64,000 nucleotides of DNA from a phage, in sequence record OZ346212.1; one strand, given 5' to 3'. The notes beneath the pieces are model-generated. The model was not told the DNA's origin. It ran no database searches and saw nothing but the letters and a program-made list of their open reading frames with translations. Position numbers and translations under genes: made by a program. This document shows, piece by piece, positions 19,445-62,897 of the stretch (within the stretch, counting starts at the first letter, position 1; the number at the start of each line of letters is the position of its first letter).

Positions 19445-20436
19445 AAGCACATAGCCGCCAGATCTCAGAATTTACGTACGCTCACCAGTCTATAGCCTGC
19501 TAAGTATTTATTCCAACCATAGAATAACGGAATAGTCAATACCTGCATAAAATAATTATTCGTGTAAACTGCATAACATAAATCGGCTAGGATGTCAACA
19601 TTTTTCGTAAACAGCTCGAAATTATAACGGTGAGTTATAATAAACAGAGAAATCTTTAGTCGTCTAATGTTTACTGTACATTACTATACTGACTGGAATC
19701 ATTAGATGACTAAGAGAAAGATAAGAAATCATTAACAATGCAATTGTTTTATTCGTAACAATAAGGCAACTATGCAAACGGATGGCATGGCGCGACGGAG
19801 TCGCGACATAATATAAAAGCAGTAACCATCACCCCCGTGATAGTTTGTCTGCAAACTATTAATCAGATCATAGTTGCCTTGTATTTAGTTAATCATGACA
19901 TAACAAGCAAGGCAACTATAGATCTGCTAATAGTTGCCCTGCTTTTATATTATGTCATAGATTATTAGCCTGTTAATTGTTAGTCAGTCAAATCAACAAC
20001 GTTATCATTTCAGTCTTTATTGTTGTTGATCGTTATTGTTATCATGCAAACGAATGGCATGGCTTATCATTTTTGAGTAAACAATCTATACGTGAACAGT
20101 GAGGCAAGTTAGCAGCCGATAGATTAGATATTAACCTGCAGACTTCTGACCGTCTAGACGTCTAAACGCCCACACAACAAGGATTATACATACAATACTG
20201 AATGTAAACAGGGCCGCAAAAATGCTACCATACCACAGATTGTAAATTTTTCATGCAGCACTTGACAAAGAGGAGAACTTAATTTTATCAGGATAGGCAA
20301 GAATGTCAAGGCATGACTGCTCACTAAACAAGCAAACAGTCATGTGTGGGAGGTAAGTGATTGTGGTGGTAGGAAATTTAGTTGAAAGATGTGTTATAGG
20401 TGCTTCCAGCACTTTAGCCGGGCAGCTAATTGTGTG
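19445..20436. other. convergent-transcription junction, AT-rich with hairpins and direct repeats
   Basis: No ORF; palindromes ATAGTTGCCTTG...CAAGGCAACTAT, CGCGAC-gga-GTCGCG, ATAGTTTG-tctg-CAAACTAT; direct repeat ATGCAAACG(G/A)ATGGCATGGC twice. Confidence 0.5.
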
Positions 20437-56793: not shown

Positions 56794-57144
56794 TCAGTAG
56801 ATGTTTTGTTTAATCTCTATTCCAAACTTCTTGAATGAGTCAGCAGCAAGCATAAATTTACGAGCTGCCGATGGATTAGAAGTATGCACGAAAATAATCA
56901 CGTTGTCAATAAGTGGTGGCTTTCCGAATACAAGTTTCTCCTCTAGCGCAGAGAAGCAGTCGTACCCTTCAAGCACTTCACCTAGATCATTGTCAAAATA
57001 CCACTCAGATACGCGTCTGTAGAGCTTTCTCTTATCATTAAGAAAATCCATAAACTCAGAAGAATTCTTTAGCCACAGAGCGTCTGGGAGTCCATAATCT
57101 GACGGATCTCTAAAATCATCAAGCCACACAATCCACTTCTTCAT
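56794..57144 (-). CDS. hypothetical protein (116 aa)
   Basis: Track ORF between the sirtuin-like and ligase-like genes. Confidence 0.5.
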   Translation of the reverse strand: MKKWIVWLDDFRDPSDYGLPDALWLKNSSEFMDFLNDKRKLYRRVSEWYFDNDLGEVLEGYDCFSALEEKLVFGKPPLIDNVIIFVHTSNPSAARKFMLAADSFKKFGIEIKQNIY

Positions 57145-58076
57145 TGCATATAGTCCTCGTTGTGGAAATAGTAGTCCAGTATCTCACGACGCTCCTGCTC
57201 TAATAAGCAATTCCACACATCTTCTGTATAGTTGCTACGAATAAATTTTACCATACCGTAAAACTCTTCGTCAACACGTTTAAAGATATCATCATCCCAA
57301 ATCTTCCAAGCTTTACCCCTCATTACTGCCTTCCGTGCCAGATAGTATGGAGACTTGATCTTCAGCTGCAGATCATAAGGGTAGTAAGGCTTACGAATCA
57401 TATACCCTTCACCTCTTGTTTCTGCAGCTAATTCTTTTGCATAGCTGAACGGAATTTCACGCACAGTGTTAGGACGTTTTGCACCAAGGTATTTGGCAAT
57501 CCCATCTAAAGCTGCTTCTGGTAGCATTATTCCAGAATCATTATATCTGCAACCTATCAAATATGCGCCATGGTCTTCTTGAACAATATGCGGATCTGAA
57601 GGGTGACAAATTTCAAACATGAATGTCATGTTTTCATTGCCCATAACCTTCTTGATAAGATCTAAATTACCACATTGCTCTTGGATGGTTTCCTTTGCAA
57701 GGTTACAATATGGAGAATCAAGAGACCCGGTTGTTGAGAACAATAGGTCACCTTTATGAGATGATACCACACCAAGGAATCCGTTCTTTTTCTCTACCGC
57801 AGTCACAAGCTTATTGTCAGGCAGGTTGGTGGAGTTTTCTCCCAAGTTAAACACTTTTGTGAAGGGCCATGCCACAACATTTCCTTCATTACCTACAACA
57901 ATGCCTCGGCACTCCAGTAAACGAGGGGACAAATGCCATAAATTGTTGTAAAATACTTTTCTAGCATATTTATAGATCTTTAACCCGAGATCTGGGTAAT
58001 ACCTACTGGTTACAAGACCTTTGTCAACTAGGTCGTCTGCATTAAAATACTTCATTATATGTTCCTCATTTGTCAT
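57141..58076 (-). CDS. putative RNA ligase / nucleotidyltransferase (ligase superfamily)
   Basis: Candidate motif I VEKKNGF (KxNG); divergently paired with P-loop kinase and phosphoesterase next to tRNA genes. Confidence 0.4.
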   Translation of the reverse strand: MTNEEHIMKYFNADDLVDKGLVTSRYYPDLGLKIYKYARKVFYNNLWHLSPRLLECRGIVVGNEGNVVAWPFTKVFNLGENSTNLPDNKLVTAVEKKNGFLGVVSSHKGDLLFSTTGSLDSPYCNLAKETIQEQCGNLDLIKKVMGNENMTFMFEICHPSDPHIVQEDHGAYLIGCRYNDSGIMLPEAALDGIAKYLGAKRPNTVREIPFSYAKELAAETRGEGYMIRKPYYPYDLQLKIKSPYYLARKAVMRGKAWKIWDDDIFKRVDEEFYGMVKFIRSNYTEDVWNCLLEQERREILDYYFHNEDYMQ

Positions 58077-58176
58077 TTTGTCAGTCTATCCTGCCACACA
58101 AATAACCTAGTGTCAACACTTGAAATTAACAAAACAGTTAGGTATACTACCGTTGAAATTAAAACGGAGGGTCGCT

Positions 58177-58587
58177 ATGTCTAAAATGCTATATATCGTG
58201 CGTGGTCTACCAGGGTCTGGCAAATCAACACTGGCAAATGAGCTATCTTTAGAGGGTCTGTATCCACATTTTGAGAACGACATGTTCTGGTATGACGATG
58301 ACGGCAATTACAACTGGGATGCAAGTAAAGTAACACTCGCAGCAAAATGGTGCAAAGATAACGTAGAAGATATGATGCGTATGGGATACGACCGTATCGT
58401 GGTAAGTAATACGTTTACAAAAGAAAAACATGTGCAGGAATATGTTGACATGGCAATCACTCACGGGTATAGTTATACCGTGATCGTGGTTGAAAACCGC
58501 CACGGTAATAAAAGCATTCATGATGTTCCAGACAAGGTTGTGGATCGTATGGAACGCCAGCTTAAAAACTGCATTAAACTTAAATGA
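58177..58587 (+). CDS. P-loop polynucleotide-kinase-like protein
   Basis: ATG 58177 after GGAGGG; Walker A GLPGSGKST; track ORF start 58120 lies in promoter. Confidence 0.6.
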   Translation: MSKMLYIVRGLPGSGKSTLANELSLEGLYPHFENDMFWYDDDGNYNWDASKVTLAAKWCKDNVEDMMRMGYDRIVVSNTFTKEKHVQEYVDMAITHGYSYTVIVVENRHGNKSIHDVPDKVVDRMERQLKNCIKLK

Positions 58588-58594
58588 GGAATGT

Positions 58595-59149
58595 ATGAAA
58601 TACTTTGTAACAAGCGACACACACTTTCTCCACCAGCGGGTCATGGAGTTTGATTCATGTCAAAAACACAGATCTCAGTATGATCACAATCTTGACAGTA
58701 TGAATGCAGGAATCATCGCCGAGTGGAACTCTGTTGTGTCACCTGCAGACACTGTGTTCCACTTGGGAGATATTGCGTGCACTAATGATAAGAATATCAA
58801 CAACTTACTTCCAGATATTCTAAATATGTTGAACGGACATATTATTCTTGTTCGTGGCAACCATGACACAAGGACGACTGTCAGAATTATGAAAGAGTTC
58901 GGTCATGAGGTTGTAGATTATTACGAGCTTCGCCACAACAAGAATTTGATCTGTATGAGCCATTACCAGTTTGCAAAGTGGAACAGAAAGCCTCACGGAT
59001 CAGTCCAACTGTTCGGTCATGCTCACGGAACCACACAACAGTTGTTTGGCAGGCAGCTTGATGTCGGTTGGGATGTGTGGGGGAGACTCTTACCATTAGA
59101 AGAGGCATACCGTATTGCAATGAGTTTTGATATTGACAGCAGGGAGTAA
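58595..59149 (+). CDS. calcineurin-like metallophosphoesterase
   Basis: MPP motifs SDTHF, GDIAC, GNHD; ATG 58595 after GAGGA. Confidence 0.65.
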   Translation: MKYFVTSDTHFLHQRVMEFDSCQKHRSQYDHNLDSMNAGIIAEWNSVVSPADTVFHLGDIACTNDKNINNLLPDILNMLNGHIILVRGNHDTRTTVRIMKEFGHEVVDYYELRHNKNLICMSHYQFAKWNRKPHGSVQLFGHAHGTTQQLFGRQLDVGWDVWGRLLPLEEAYRIAMSFDIDSRE

Positions 59150-59196
59150 TCCCTGCTATTTTAAAGAAAATTGCCACACAAGGAGAATCAGGAGAT

Positions 59197-59547
59197 ATGA
59201 AAGATGGGGATAAGCTGCTATATCTTAAAGTCCCCCTTGAAATACTATCTATGTCAAAAGTTTTGAATGACACAACTGGGGAGGTTGTTGTTCTTGACTT
59301 GTATGACAAGATCGTATACTGCTACCTGCACAACTGGTATAAGCTTGGAGGAAATTCACGCTTCACACCAAGCACAAGGAAAATTGCAGCAGATGTTGGG
59401 ATAAAGAAAACAAAAGCAGCAGCGTGCGTTAAAACTTTAGAATGTGCAGGAGTGGTTGAAACATCCACACAAGGGAGAGGTAAAAGATGCACATTTTCCA
59501 AAGTTTTGCCACCAGAAGAAGTTATTCGGATGTCAACAACTGGTTAG
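59197..59547 (+). CDS. putative HTH DNA-binding protein
   Basis: Helix-turn-helix-like STRKIAADVGIKKTKAAACVKTLECAGVV; immediately upstream of iteron array. Confidence 0.5.
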   Translation: MKDGDKLLYLKVPLEILSMSKVLNDTTGEVVVLDLYDKIVYCYLHNWYKLGGNSRFTPSTRKIAADVGIKKTKAAACVKTLECAGVVETSTQGRGKRCTFSKVLPPEEVIRMSTTG

Positions 59548-59621
59548 ACCAGTAAAAACTTAAATATCTGTACTATAAGGATTCGTATGTTTTATGTTCG
59601 CCATGGAACGGATACTATTAA

Positions 59622-59704
59622 CTGTCCGTGATACGGACACTACTGTCCGTCACGCGGACACATCTGCCCGTAATACGGACACTAACTGTCCGTGATACGG
59701 ACAC
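59622..59704. repeat. four phased palindromic iterons (CTGTCCGTGATACGGACAC, 21-22 bp period)
   Basis: Copies at 59622, 59643, 59664, 59686; each an inverted repeat TGTCCGT-N3-ACGGACA; followed by AT-rich tract to about 59830. Confidence 0.85.
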
Positions 59705-59829
59705 ATAAAGAATATAACTAAAATAACTAAATAATAAAAAATAAAAGATCTAGTACTTATGGTACTAAGTACATATACTTAACTTATGTAGAATATACTA
59801 GATCCTAAGTACCATGTTTTAAATTTATT

Positions 59830-60100
59830 ACTTACTATGGGCAGTGTCGGCCCTTCATTGGCACTCGCCTACGAGGGGGCGAGATGCCGGGCCTCCTTGG
59901 CGCACACAATAACAGAAGTTCATACATGCAGGTCTGTTAACATGTGTGGGAGCGAAGCGATAGCGCAGGCCAAAGGCCGAGCACTGATGTGGACCACCGA
60001 CGAAAGCTTGCCAGCGCCGTAAGGAGTCGGTTGAGAGTCTCCCGCGCGAGCTTGGATGAAGTTTATGTGTGGAAACTGACAAGAAGGCCCCTAAATCGCT
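59830..60100. ncRNA. GC-rich structured non-coding segment (candidate ncRNA, identity unknown)
   Basis: Sharp GC jump in an AT-rich genome; nested hairpins e.g. GGCA-CTCGCC-tacgaggg-GGCGAG-a-TGCC; both-strand ORFs are not protein-like and lack SD. Confidence 0.3.
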
Positions 60101-60208
60101 CCACAGCTATATAAACTATACCAGGTAATGCAATCGCACCAGTTTGATAGAAAAGCTCGTTACAAAGCGATACAGTGAGTTTTTCTATAACTTGAAGAGG
60201 AGGCAGCT

Positions 60209-60787
60209 ATGGGTTCACGCAAAGATGACCGTGAAAAGATTGCAAAACGTTATCAGAATGAAGAACAGATGGAGAAAACTTTCAAGTGGAAGCCAGGTTT
60301 CCAGCGTAATCATTCTAACGCTCGTGATCGTAAGCATCCGGATAAGTGGCTAACACCGCCAAATGATGGCATGCAGGTTGGGGATGAGAAGGAGATGTCG
60401 CCTGGAAAAGATGGCAACTACATTCGCACTAAGGACGCTGGTCCAAAGGATGACAGCTATCTTGTAGATAAGGTTCTTGATGGTATCAATGTAGATGTTG
60501 ACACTGCACGAAACCTTTTTCTTGGGTGGTATCGCACAGGTTTTTTCGACATCAAGGCTATTCGTCGTGTTTGTGATATTAAAAAGTCTGCATATGATGA
60601 CGACTCGTTACATCGCACCCTGAGACAATATTCAGAAAGATATGGTCATCCGGTTATCACTCTTGACGATGTTAACGAAGTGATGTATCATGCAGAGGTT
60701 GTTGCAGGAAGATTCGGTGATGCATATCTTGATATCCTTTCTGCAAAGGATGAGGTAATGTTAAATAAGATTTACTATGAACGCTGA
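60209..60787 (+). CDS. hypothetical protein (192 aa)
   Basis: SD GAGGAGG then ATG. Confidence 0.6.
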   Translation: MGSRKDDREKIAKRYQNEEQMEKTFKWKPGFQRNHSNARDRKHPDKWLTPPNDGMQVGDEKEMSPGKDGNYIRTKDAGPKDDSYLVDKVLDGINVDVDTARNLFLGWYRTGFFDIKAIRRVCDIKKSAYDDDSLHRTLRQYSERYGHPVITLDDVNEVMYHAEVVAGRFGDAYLDILSAKDEVMLNKIYYER

Positions 60788-61305: not shown

Positions 61306-61329
61306 GGTTGTTTTCGTGTATCATGATGA

Positions 61330-61592
61330 ATATCCAATTTAAAGATGAATTTGATGGCTTTATCTCCGGATGCTTTGAAACAGGGTTCGGAGAAGGCTGA
61401 GTTCCCCTTAGAGGGCTTGATAGTGCACCACACTTAAAATGGTAGGGGCAGCCAGCACATGACGATGTGACCCCAGCCAACCTGTAATAAGGTCGAGCCA
61501 AAGTGCGGTAATGGGCTCTGGTAACCCACTTGTTGGGTCTTGCTGGTCCAGGACGCTGGACAAGTCGCAGGGAATACCACCCTGCGGCGAAC
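61330..61592. other. second GC-rich structured non-coding segment
   Basis: No protein-like ORF on either strand; hairpins TCCAG-gacg-CTGGA, GCAGGG-aatacca-CCCTGC. Confidence 0.3.
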
Positions 61593-61621
61593 TTGACAAT
61601 CAGTATTTGCTATGATAAAAT
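61593..61621 (+). promoter_or_regulatory. sigma70-type promoter (TTGACA-17-TAAAAT)
   Basis: Hexamers 57 nt upstream of ATG 61650. Confidence 0.55.
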
Positions 61622-61649
61622 CCACCTATCACGTGATAATGGAGGAAAC

Positions 61650-61988
61650 ATGGCGGATACAACTAAAAAGCGTCGCCGTAGAGGCAGACCTCTGAAAGAG
61701 GAGTCCAACGCCATTCAGCTAGAGAAGAACATCCTTGATATGAAGGAATCTTTTATAGCGATGGTTCCAGAAGCTCACAAAGTTTTAAGAGAGCTGATGT
61801 TGGACCCGAAAACCAAACAAAATATTCGTCAAAGCATTGCAGAGTATGTTCTTGATAAGGCAGACCGAATGCAGGAAGAATATGATGAGATGTTTGGTGA
61901 AGAGGAAGAGGTGGTAGTAGAAGAGGCTGAAAAACCAGCACCTTTTATGCCATTCACCACAGAAATACAGCCTGTTGGCAATAGTTAA
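61650..61988 (+). CDS. AT-hook-containing acidic protein
   Basis: ATG 61650 after GGAGGA; KKRRRRGRPLK AT-hook-like motif, acidic C-terminal half. Confidence 0.55.
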   Translation: MADTTKKRRRRGRPLKEESNAIQLEKNILDMKESFIAMVPEAHKVLRELMLDPKTKQNIRQSIAEYVLDKADRMQEEYDEMFGEEEEVVVEEAEKPAPFMPFTTEIQPVGNS

Positions 61989-62084: not shown

Positions 62085-62159
62085 GCCCTGTTAGCTTAGT
62101 GGATAAAGCAGCGGCCTTCTAAGCCGTTGACACTGGTTCGAGTCCAGTACGGGGTGCCA
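62085..62159 (+). tRNA. tRNA-Arg (anticodon UCU)
   Basis: Hand-folded cloverleaf: acceptor GCCCTGT/ACGGGGT, anticodon loop CTTCTAA, T-loop TTCGAGT, encoded CCA. Confidence 0.8.
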
Positions 62160-62163
62160 AATT

Positions 62164-62250
62164 GGGGAGTTATCCCGTAGAGGTAGCGGTGTAGACTGTA
62201 AATCTATTGTCATTGCGACTCGGGTGGTTCGACTCCACCACTCCCCACCA
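62164..62250 (+). tRNA. tRNA-Tyr (anticodon GUA), long variable arm
   Basis: Acceptor GGGGAGT/ACTCCCC, anticodon loop CTGTAAA, T-loop TTCGACT, CCA; overall like E. coli tRNA-Tyr. Confidence 0.8.
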
Positions 62251-62364
62251 AATTTATATTTTTAGATGCATAAATAATACAGATAATGGCATTGATATTT
62301 ATCGTCGTTTATACTAGTCACTAACTGCTCGAAAATCAGTGTCATTATCAGTATTATTTATAAA

Positions 62365-62455
62365 GGAGGGTAGGGAGCAATGGTGCTCAATCGGTCTTGA
62401 AAACCGTCCCGTTGAGGATGACTCGATGATGGTTCGATTCCATTACTCTCCGCCA
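62365..62455 (+). tRNA. tRNA-Ser (anticodon UGA), long variable arm
   Basis: Acceptor GGAGGGT/ACTCTCC, anticodon loop CTTGAAA, 20-nt variable arm, T-loop TTCGATT, CCA. Confidence 0.75.
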
Positions 62456-62553
62456 CATTGTTGACCTTGTAATTAAGCGAAAGTCGGAAGCAGAACCGGA
62501 TTATCAAATGTTACAGTCGTCATCGCCGACTAGCAACATGGTCAACATACTGA

Positions 62554-62650
62554 GCTAGGTAAGCCCTTTGGCAAGGGCGAGGATTTTTAATCCTGAAAAT
62601 AGACGAGGTAGTCGTTGAATACATAGGTGGTTCGATTCCATCACCTAGCA
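62554..62650 (+). tRNA. atypical 97-nt tRNA-like gene (possibly Lys-UUU with about 29-nt variable region) or pseudo-tRNA
   Basis: Perfect acceptor GCTAGGT/ACCTAGC, D-arm GCCC...GGGC, hairpin with loop TTTTTAA, extra hairpin ACGA-ggtag-TCGT, T-arm GGTGG-TTCGATT-CCATC; no encoded CCA. Confidence 0.35.
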
Positions 62651-62657
62651 CCTTTTT

Positions 62658-62733
62658 GCTGATGTAGCACAATCGGTAGTGCAATTGATTTGTAATCAAT
62701 AGGTTGTAGGTTCAAGTCCTGCCATCAGCACCA
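62658..62733 (+). tRNA. tRNA-Thr (anticodon UGU)
   Basis: Acceptor GCTGATG/CATCAGC, anticodon stem ATTGA/TCAAT with loop TTTGTAA, T-loop TTCAAGT, CCA. Confidence 0.85.
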
Positions 62734-62734
62734 A

Positions 62735-62809
62735 GGCCCTGTAGCTGGAAGGTTCAAGCAAGCGACTCATAATCGCCAGACGGTGGTTCAATTCCACCCA
62801 GGGCCACCA
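62735..62809 (+). tRNA. tRNA-Met or Ile2 (anticodon CAU), elongator type
   Basis: Acceptor GGCCCTG/CAGGGCC fully paired (not initiator-like), anticodon loop CTCATAA, T-loop TTCAATT, CCA. Confidence 0.75.
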
Positions 62810-62820
62810 AATAGTAAATA

Positions 62821-62897
62821 CTCCGCGTAGCTCAGCTTGGTAGAGCGCCTGATTTGGGATCAGGAGGTCGAGTGTTCGAATCACTCCGTGGAGACCA
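62821..62897 (+). tRNA. tRNA-Pro (anticodon UGG)
   Basis: Acceptor CTCCGCG/CGTGGAG, D-arm GCTC...GAGC, anticodon stem CCTGA/TCAGG with loop TTTGGGA, T-loop TTCGAAT, CCA. Confidence 0.85.

Follow-up and report, generated by a model that had tools for sequence, protein, structure and literature searches.

A conserved, structured non-coding element beside an origin-like module of an rV5-like phage recurs in part in satellite-like Escherichia coli plasmids

Results

The 64,000-nucleotide stretch of sequence record OZ346212.1 analysed here (the window) belongs to an rV5-like phage of the genus Vequintavirus, as its region 59500-60300 matches 119 records of such phages at 90-99.8% identity. Our subject is a GC-rich, self-complementary element (~59843-60117) near the right end of the window. 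From the left, the locus consists of an RNA ligase gene (- strand), polynucleotide kinase and metallophosphoesterase genes, open reading frame (ORF) 79, four iterons, an AT-rich tract and the GC-rich element, followed on the right by ORF77 (60209-60787), small ORFs, a tRNA cluster (62085-62897) and the spanin genes. The large terminase gene lies just past the end of the window, ~4 kb downstream of the element and in the same orientation, and the element heads a rightward unit leading into the terminase, head and tail genes.

An earlier reading of these letters alone (the sequence-only reading) had singled out 59830-60100 as an isolated, non-coding segment and a candidate structured RNA, far richer in GC than its surroundings and placed between the iteron/AT-rich region and the next gene. 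The GC excess was borne out: 59839-60101 is the most GC-rich 263-nt stretch of the 64 kb, at 0.574 compared to a mean of 0.427 (standard deviation 0.033), or ~4.4 standard deviations above it. The position was also correct, with the iterons (59621-59704) and the AT-rich tract (59711-59835) on one side and ORF77 on the other. Comparison with relatives moved the boundaries to ~59843-60117, the right end lying slightly further out than first drawn. The label "isolated" had to be given up, as the segment and the iteron/AT-rich module to its left are tightly coupled, and this coupling is the main clue to its function. A host origin of the sequence was ruled out, as it has no chromosomal E. coli match.

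ORFs within the segment are entered as hypothetical proteins in some GenBank records (rV5 ORF78, Bas55), and ORF78 is annotated in the rV5, ECML-10 and BASEL phage records. These ORFs failed a coding test on an alignment of 20 relatives of the locus, including two divergent ones, L004 (IMG/VR) and L007 (Logan assembly). The variable sites of ORF78 (56 aa, 59944-60114) were distributed 19/20/22 over the three codon positions, so that the codon periodicity which the sequence-only reading had named as the mark of a small GC-rich protein gene was not seen, and in four relatives (L003, L004, L007 and L017) the frame was cut short or shifted. Indels of 1 nt and 18 nt were seen in the upstream 61-aa ORF (59837-60022). 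The element is non-protein-coding, as had been claimed. The L003 sequence (phage Alma, OV101294.1) also has three lone single-base indels in otherwise invariant stretches of the element (window 59853, 59991 and 60087), which were given no weight because they are likely sequencing errors and not real variants.

Identity to L004/L007 was 92% in the block containing the first hairpin, H1 (59848-59897), and again 92% in a conserved core (59943-60052), compared to 64-67% in the stretch between them (59898-59942), 63-65% in the stretch after the core (60053-60134) and 67% at the third codon positions of ORF77. This contrast with flanking and third-codon sites indicates that H1 and the core are under purifying selection at the nucleotide level.

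Three helices of the + strand, H1, P2 and P3, are conserved; the evidence for them consists of compensatory changes, G-U intermediates and a deletion that preserves the structure. Comparative covariation had been proposed as a check by the sequence-only reading, and compensatory substitutions do keep the helices across relatives. H1 (59846-59897) has an outer stem (59849-53/59889-93) and an inner stem (59860-70/59877-88) with a bulged A, and RNAalifold predicted 16 pairs within 59849-59893. Of the two complementary runs cited earlier as examples of self-complementarity, GGCACTCGCC...GGCGAGATGCC is the inner stem of H1, while the other reduces to a 4-bp GGCC/GGCC hairpin. All variation of H1 among phages falls in the loop; in L022, one of the E. 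coli plasmids described below, two G-C pairs are replaced by U-A through changes on both sides, and other plasmids have a different GC-rich hairpin at this position, again with a bulged A. Homology with both L004 and L022 begins exactly at the left edge of H1 (59846), which forms the left boundary in every comparison.

P2 (59903-59948) consists of a closing stem, CACACA/UGUGUG (59903-08/59943-48), around a variable inner hairpin (59911-16/59933-38). In rV5, Pr121LW and A147, where 18 nt are deleted, CACACAUG/CAUGUGUG still form a perfect hairpin of 8 bp. At 59916:59933 the pair is A-U, C-G (L004) or U-A (L007), with pairing lost in six sequences, and pair 59911:59938 has gone from A-U to G-U in four sequences. 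The plasmid counterpart of P2 is a CCCACA...UGUGUGGG stem enclosing another hairpin.

The core (59943-60052) contains UGUGUGGG, two small hairpins (GC-GAUA-GC and GGCC-AAA-GGCC), AUGUGGAC, the P3 domain and GAGUCUCCCGCGCG. P3 (59996-60001/60026-60031) encloses GCU[UGCC]AGC and the two-pair hairpin CC[GUAA]GG, which has a GNRA loop with varying N (GUAA or GGAA). Across phages and plasmids the pairs of P3 appear as AU/GU/GC, CG/UA and AU/CG. In the P3 alignment (A3) 94.9% of cells were paired and the observed covariation was reached by 0 of 500 shuffles, and slid registers were 16-58% paired. Plasmids L271, L275 and L277 have in the place of P3 an unrelated 8-bp stem, GUCCGGAU/AUCCGGAC, between the same conserved flanks. 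After a variable spacer, phages and 8 of the 9 plasmids inspected carry a 3' motif, AAG(G/C)CCCCUAAAU(C/G)GC...GC...AAC (60083-60117). This motif was taken to close the shared unit on the right; the exception was L276, in whose examined stretch it was not found. In the plasmids, 1-4 additional modules made of UGUGUGGG and small hairpins, in some cases with UUCG loops, are inserted between H1 and the core.

Folded as a single sequence, the phage + strand reached -103.6 kcal/mol (z = -2.0 compared to shuffles) and the - strand z = -1.65, while the plasmid versions gave z values of -2.8 to -7.1. In 5 of 6 versions, phage and plasmid together, the fold of the + strand was the more stable of the two by 5-15 kcal/mol. 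As the single-sequence signal is modest, the case for structure rests on the comparison with relatives. G-U intermediates occur on the + strand only, as A-U to G-U to G-C at 59996:60031 and as the A-U to G-U change at 59911:59938. Many of the stems are short perfect palindromes with 3-nt loops, equally apt for DNA hairpins. Judged from these sequence features, RNA is favoured over the single-stranded DNA of an unwound origin as the form in which the element acts, because the G-U pairs are confined to the + strand, this strand is the sense of the flanking genes and no upstream terminator is predicted. The earlier description as a structured RNA is supported in part, in its non-coding status and its folding; a discrete, stable RNA is a possible product of the segment.

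The earlier failure to place the segment among known RNAs was repeated with Rfam. In a Rfam 15 scan of the whole window only tRNAs passed the gathering threshold, with no hit at that level to tmRNA, RNase P, 6S, group I/II introns, riboswitches, Y RNA-like, C4 or omega-RNA models, and the best hit in 59500-60400 was rli43 (22.5 bits compared to a 100-bit threshold), spanning the AT-rich tract. No credible hit emerged at gathering or permissive thresholds, whether the window, the locus or plasmid L022 was scanned.

We examined the module to which the element is coupled. ORF79 (59197-59547, + strand) encodes a 116-aa winged helix-turn-helix (HTH) protein that is a candidate origin-binding initiator and the variable part of the module. 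It falls just under the Pfam cut-off for DUF6945/HTH_36 and matches the PHROG "replication initiation protein" families 12838 (5e-80), 8102 (8e-6) and 428 (7e-4), and some GenBank records name it a replication initiation protein. In L004 and L007 its place is taken by an unrelated 143-aa HTH protein, also matching PHROG 8102, and ORF79, the 143-aa protein of L004 and a 302-aa plasmid HTH protein all match PHROG initiator/O-like families, weakly outside their own family; in Pfam nothing beyond HTH domains under the cut-off was obtained. The iterons (59621-59704) were read from the sequence as four tandem 21-22 bp copies with the dyad core GTCCGTnnnACGGAC and are annotated in the phage Alma record as a 4-copy repeat of period 21; they are not conserved in L004, which has other repeats. 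The AT-rich tract (59711-59835, GC 0.20) has internal inverted repeats and is a candidate DNA-unwinding element. It holds the only perfect oriC-type 13-mer of the window, GATCTnTTnTTTT (59738-59750, - strand), where 0.09 were expected and 7 of 100 shuffles had at least one match.

To the left of the element there is always a short palindromic repeat array followed by an AT-rich tract, although the repeats differ by lineage, with GTCCGTnnnACGGAC in the window type, others in L004/L007 and at least three further types in plasmids. From these comparisons we propose that the HTH initiator and iterons would be swappable specificity parts and the element the constant part across phages and plasmids. 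The sole sigma-70-like promoter in 59100-60400, from a scan that does not cover phage-specific promoters, lies at 59133, upstream of ORF79, and no terminator was predicted between it and ORF77. The genes directly upstream of the origin-like module form an RNA-repair set (57141-59149), with the RNA ligase on the - strand and the polynucleotide kinase and metallophosphoesterase on the + strand; no link between this set and the element was found.

When complete E. coli genomes and PLSDB were searched, parts of the element turned up in small circular plasmids of E. coli with a unit length of 13.3-13.9 kb, one of which was a trimer of 39.6 kb. Carriers made up 7 of 5,426 complete E. coli genomes, never on the chromosome. 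The plasmid family comprises L022, L023, L210 (a metagenome contig), L269-L272 and L275-L277, with accessions NZ_CP020521.1, NZ_CP043822.1, NZ_CP035869.1, CP148565.1, CP134895.1, NZ_CP178698.1, NZ_CP074841.1, NZ_JBUCKS010000006.1 and NZ_AP045055.1. These plasmids encode major capsid, Dit-like tail, tape-measure and HTH proteins, and three of their proteins are ~40-54% identical to rV5-like tail-module proteins (isim_110, isim_117 and the tape measure). They are non-mobilizable and have a non-coding region of 2.2-2.9 kb; no terminase or portal gene was found in them and no replicon type was recognised. The element is the only DNA shared by plasmid and phage at E <= 1e-10, apart from which there were two weak matches (E about 1e-5) inside homologous tail genes.

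In the plasmids the element lies in the large non-coding region, directly beside one iteron-like array, and a strong TTGACA-N18-TATAAG promoter is present between it and the downstream genes. L022 carries the phage-type H1, which marks phage-plasmid recombination at the element. On their gene content these plasmids look like satellites of rV5-like phages, and the sequence comparison suggests that phage and plasmids probably share one cis-acting signal. The family is apparently undescribed: literature searches on the plasmids and on rV5 non-coding RNAs, transcriptomes and satellites found nothing relevant.

The element is very narrowly distributed, in a single phage genus and its plasmids. Protein and DNA scans of IMG/VR added only one divergent relative, gapped motif scans for a wider family found nothing further, and scans of genome and metagenome collections with 17-mers, which were poorly chosen, returned almost only chance matches and two real ones (L229 and L210). 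Among the GenBank records matching the locus are 18 "Campylobacter phage" entries (MG0656xx), some marked UNVERIFIED, which are 90-99% identical to E. coli rV5-like phages there and are probably mislabelled or contaminant assemblies.

ORF77 (60209-60787, + strand, 192 aa) travels with the element in Vequintavirus. Its identity to L004 by codon position (0.875/0.948/0.672) marks it as a real gene, and its protein is 82% identical in L004 and L007. It has no Pfam, PDB or informative PHROG match, and its AlphaFold model has a predicted local distance difference test score of 49. The leader of ORF77 (60135-60208) is nearly invariant (89-92% identity to L004/L007), holds the Shine-Dalgarno sequence and is possibly a separate regulatory region, although no sigma-70 consensus promoter was found in it. 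An inverted copy of CAGGTAATGCAATYGCACC from the leader region is present in plasmids. The 20-mer CAGGTAATGCAATCGCACCA (60122-60141), just right of the element, likewise occurs in plasmids with one mismatch and inverted relative to the element (L022 12289-12308), which suggests a protein-binding site and not a part of the folded strand.

Further features were observed elsewhere in the window. A second GC-rich non-coding island (61306-61650, GC up to 0.545) lies between ORF75 and ORF74, is 92.8% identical to L004/L007 compared to ~65% at neutral sites and ends in a TTGACA promoter; it has hairpins such as GUCCAG-GACG-CUGGAC and CGCAGGG...CCCUGCG, a fold z of -1.9 and no Rfam match. A 1-kb non-coding region (19445-20436), where converging gene blocks meet at the cumulative GC-skew maximum, contains AAGGCAACTAT repeats in both orientations, modules of UGUGUGGG plus hairpin and a promoter-like site, TTGACA-N17-TTTATC, at ~20262; it may be a second element like the one at ~59843-60117, or else a gene for a small RNA. 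The tRNA cluster includes an unusually long (97-99 nt) tRNA-like gene (62554-62652) which ARAGORN reports as of undetermined type with a 4-base anticodon, which scores 35.5 bits with the Rfam tRNA model and which is tRNA-Lys(TTT) in related phage records. The heptamer TGTGTGG occurs 25 times on both strands of the window compared to ~6 expected, and TGTGTGGG 9 times compared to 2; plasmids L022, L269 and L271 have 14-17 copies of the heptamer compared to ~1.4 expected, with a sense-strand bias within plasmid genes. TGTGTGG might be a DNA-level signal used by the phage.

Discussion

The element at ~59843-60117 is non-coding, under purifying selection, structured, biased towards the + strand and consistently adjacent to an iteron/AT-rich module. 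The origin of phage lambda (ori-lambda) is laid out as dyad iterons, an AT-rich region and, on the right, a self-complementary arm; one part of it varies and confers specificity, and another is constant. Because the order of iterons, AT-rich tract and self-complementary region found here, with its variable and constant parts, matches this layout, we tentatively take the element to be the arm, constant and structured, of a lambda-like origin from which the rV5-like phage would replicate, a reading to which we give slightly less than even odds. Its working form would be either a + strand transcript or the unwound DNA, acting in cis in priming or in loading the replisome. Both the origin status of the module and everything said here of priming are inferred by analogy. 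The plasmids add to the argument, in that they need an origin, persisting as autonomous 13-14 kb circles without a recognised replicon type.

Under a lambda-like scheme the initiator would bind the iterons and open the AT-rich tract, and the adjacent + strand would become single-stranded, whether by displacement of the DNA strand or in the form of a transcript reading through from the promoter at 59133. This strand would then fold into H1, P2 and P3, spaced by the unpaired motifs UGUGUGGG, AUGUGGAC, GAGUCUCCCGCGCG and CCCCUAAAU, and the proteins that prime synthesis or load the helicase would recognise the folded strand, much as happens with single-strand initiation signals (ssi) or with R-loop and primer transcripts. 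The plasmids may have retained the element so that the same machinery, from the host or a helper phage, starts their synthesis.

Several observations weigh against an origin. The phage version outfolds its shuffles only modestly (z about -2), and the ~270-nt arm is far larger than the 28-bp palindrome of ori-lambda. Sequence searches with the element matched only Vequintavirus records and showed no similarity to G4 or phiX-type priming signals. The PHROG and Pfam matches outside the HTH protein's own family are weak (E 1e-4 to 1e-6), and an HTH protein with dyad repeats fits a repressor with its operators equally well. No DnaA box was found in the iteron/AT-rich/element region, the nearest one-mismatch sites being at 58260 and 59205, and the sigma-70 and terminator scan found no promoter or terminator that would bound a primer RNA. 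The cumulative GC-skew minimum (~58.0-58.25 kb, ~1.5 kb from the element) is not independent evidence because it coincides with a switch in gene orientation. A long-range stem, UGUGUGGGAG/CUCCCGCGC, was considered but given up for want of proof, as there is hardly any variation in its bases and a change on one side in L277 is not compensated on the other.

If the HTH protein and its four repeats were instead a repressor with operators, they could switch transcription into a cis-acting leader or intergenic RNA governing the downstream operon, possibly by processive antitermination like that of HK022 put, by attenuation through alternative pairings, or by processing or stabilisation. The element lies on the sense strand of the flanking genes in phages and plasmids alike and heads the unit into the terminase, head and tail genes, with no terminator predicted from the promoter at 59133 to ORF77; three copies of UGUGUGG, together with CACACA and CCCGCGCG, permit mutually exclusive pairings, and the G-U intermediates and GNRA/UUCG-type loops suit RNA. 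However, the strong promoter downstream of the element means that such a leader is not obligatory for the plasmid genes, the terminator scan showed no U-tract terminators within or after the element, and the AT-rich tract with its 13-mer and the initiator-family matches would be left unexplained. An obligatory leader of ORF77 was rejected outright, as a 50%-identical ORF77 homologue (L006) has no such element upstream. We regard a leader RNA as unlikely. A discrete trans-acting non-coding RNA gene, copied by satellites and binding a phage or host protein as a sponge or ribonucleoprotein component, would account for the strong conservation of unpaired motifs along with that of the stems, for peripheral hairpin modules that vary around a fixed core, as is typical of structured RNAs, for several GGA-containing motifs and for the plasmid versions that far outfold their shuffles. 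We consider it improbable, since no gene-defining promoter or terminator and no Rfam relative were found, the distribution is confined to one genus and its plasmids, and a free-standing RNA gene would not predict the tight adjacency to an iteron module. We do not propose that the GGA and GGGTC motifs form a CsrA sponge or T7-type primase sites, as these ideas are purely speculative.

Accretion of mobile intergenic hairpin cassettes, comparable to repetitive extragenic palindromic (REP) elements or to the promoter-stem-loop cassettes of T4, would need no locus-specific role, the hairpins possibly acting generically as mRNA stabilisers, terminators or recombination hot spots. Similar hairpins do occur at other non-coding loci (window 20399-20418 is identical to L271 6192-6211), the count of UGUGUGGG-plus-hairpin modules varies from 1 to 4 among plasmids, and the phage-type H1 of L022 attests to recombination here. 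Yet the core is syntenic and 92% conserved, unpaired motifs included, although the phages differ by ~35% at neutral sites, and its place and orientation relative to the iteron module are constant; a cassette origin thus seems distinctly improbable. Vequintaviruses are reported to be circularly permuted, headful packagers (PMC8407724, PMC13211470), and the element might be a pac recognition site, copied so that the helper terminase packages the satellite plasmids. The large terminase gene starts ~4 kb farther on and is oriented the same way, the element is the sole DNA shared by plasmids and helper-type phage at the threshold given above, and the plasmids have a capsid gene but no terminase, one of them being a trimer. 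Terminase small subunits recognise duplex DNA, however, so compensatory changes in hairpins and a fully replaced stem are not what a pac site predicts; no small-terminase gene was recognisable next to the element by Pfam or PHROG, and the constant partner of the element is the iteron array with its AT-rich tract. We hold a pac site to be very improbable. Scarcely credible is a small GC-rich protein gene, either rV5 ORF78 or the 61-aa ORF, as the even spread of variable sites, the broken frames, the indels in the upstream ORF and the lack of a corresponding ORF in plasmid copies all speak against one, even though ORF78 is annotated and an AAGGAG motif precedes an in-frame TTG at 60031.

Returning to the proposed lambda-like origin arm, its interest lies partly in the phages themselves. 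rV5-like phages are widely used therapy and biocontrol candidates whose origin and non-coding elements are unannotated; most records leave the GC-rich stretch blank or as "hypothetical protein", and no other annotation was found. A structure-constrained element joined to a swappable initiator/iteron module offers a concrete, testable candidate replication origin. The link to satellite-like plasmids makes the element more interesting than an ordinary intergenic hairpin cluster, and its presence in E. coli plasmids of 13-14 kb suggests that a genus of virulent coliphages serves as helper to satellites, with a specific shared cis signal. A bolder and doubtful claim is that the element is a previously undescribed structured RNA, required in cis by a virulent myovirus for replication start, replisome loading or packaging, which plasmid-borne satellites of rV5-like phages have copied to hijack that step; if true, it would be a molecular handle linking helper and satellite.

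Among known systems, some are alike in part only. As with the cos site of P2/P4 and the pac sites of Staphylococcus aureus pathogenicity islands (SaPI) and phage-inducible chromosomal islands (PICI), a cis site is common to helper and satellite, here a non-coding sequence in a virulent helper-type phage and in small elements with capsid and tail genes; but the element described here changes over evolution as a folded single strand would, and its neighbour is an origin-like module and not terminase genes. HK022 put and other antitermination leaders are also cis-acting structured sense-strand RNAs heading a long operon; the element is ~4 times longer, no terminators to bypass were identified and the plasmid promoter lies downstream of it. 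The transcripts of ColE1 RNA II and of T4 oriF/oriG resemble the candidate transcript here in being structured, G-rich and sense-strand beside an AT-rich unwinding element, and the plasmid versions carry G-runs next to C-runs. Primers of the ColE1 RNA II type start at a promoter of their own and are processed at a defined 3' site at the origin, whereas the scans found no dedicated promoter for the element, the promoter at 59133 being the only one, and no terminator; in T4 the AT-rich tract is downstream, and here it is upstream.

The ssi of the G4, phiX174 n' and plasmid types are closer in kind, as they are GC-rich hairpin clusters beside an unwinding region, strand-specific and with conserved unpaired motifs. 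Here too the hairpins are conserved in one strand, as seen in the covariation of H1, P2 and P3 and in the + strand preference, and the element includes the sequence of the very stable GCGAAGC mini-hairpin (59952-59958). It lacks sequence similarity to G4 or phiX, is longer and modular in length, and its priming role is a proposal by analogy. With ori-lambda it has in common four ~20-bp dyad iterons, then an AT-rich tract and a GC-richer self-complementary region, that is, a tandem repeat array and an adjacent unwinding element at the coordinates given above; as in lambdoid phages, the iterons and the initiator's DNA-binding part vary between relatives and the other side is constant, and the neighbouring proteins weakly match O-like/initiator PHROGs. 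Unlike ori-lambda, the candidate origin lies outside the gene of the candidate initiator, which has only 116 aa, the arm of ~270 nt has at least three helices where ori-lambda has its short palindrome, no P-like loader was identified and the origin is read from sequence. While belonging to no curated RNA family, the element in kind resembles known origin-associated structured regions.

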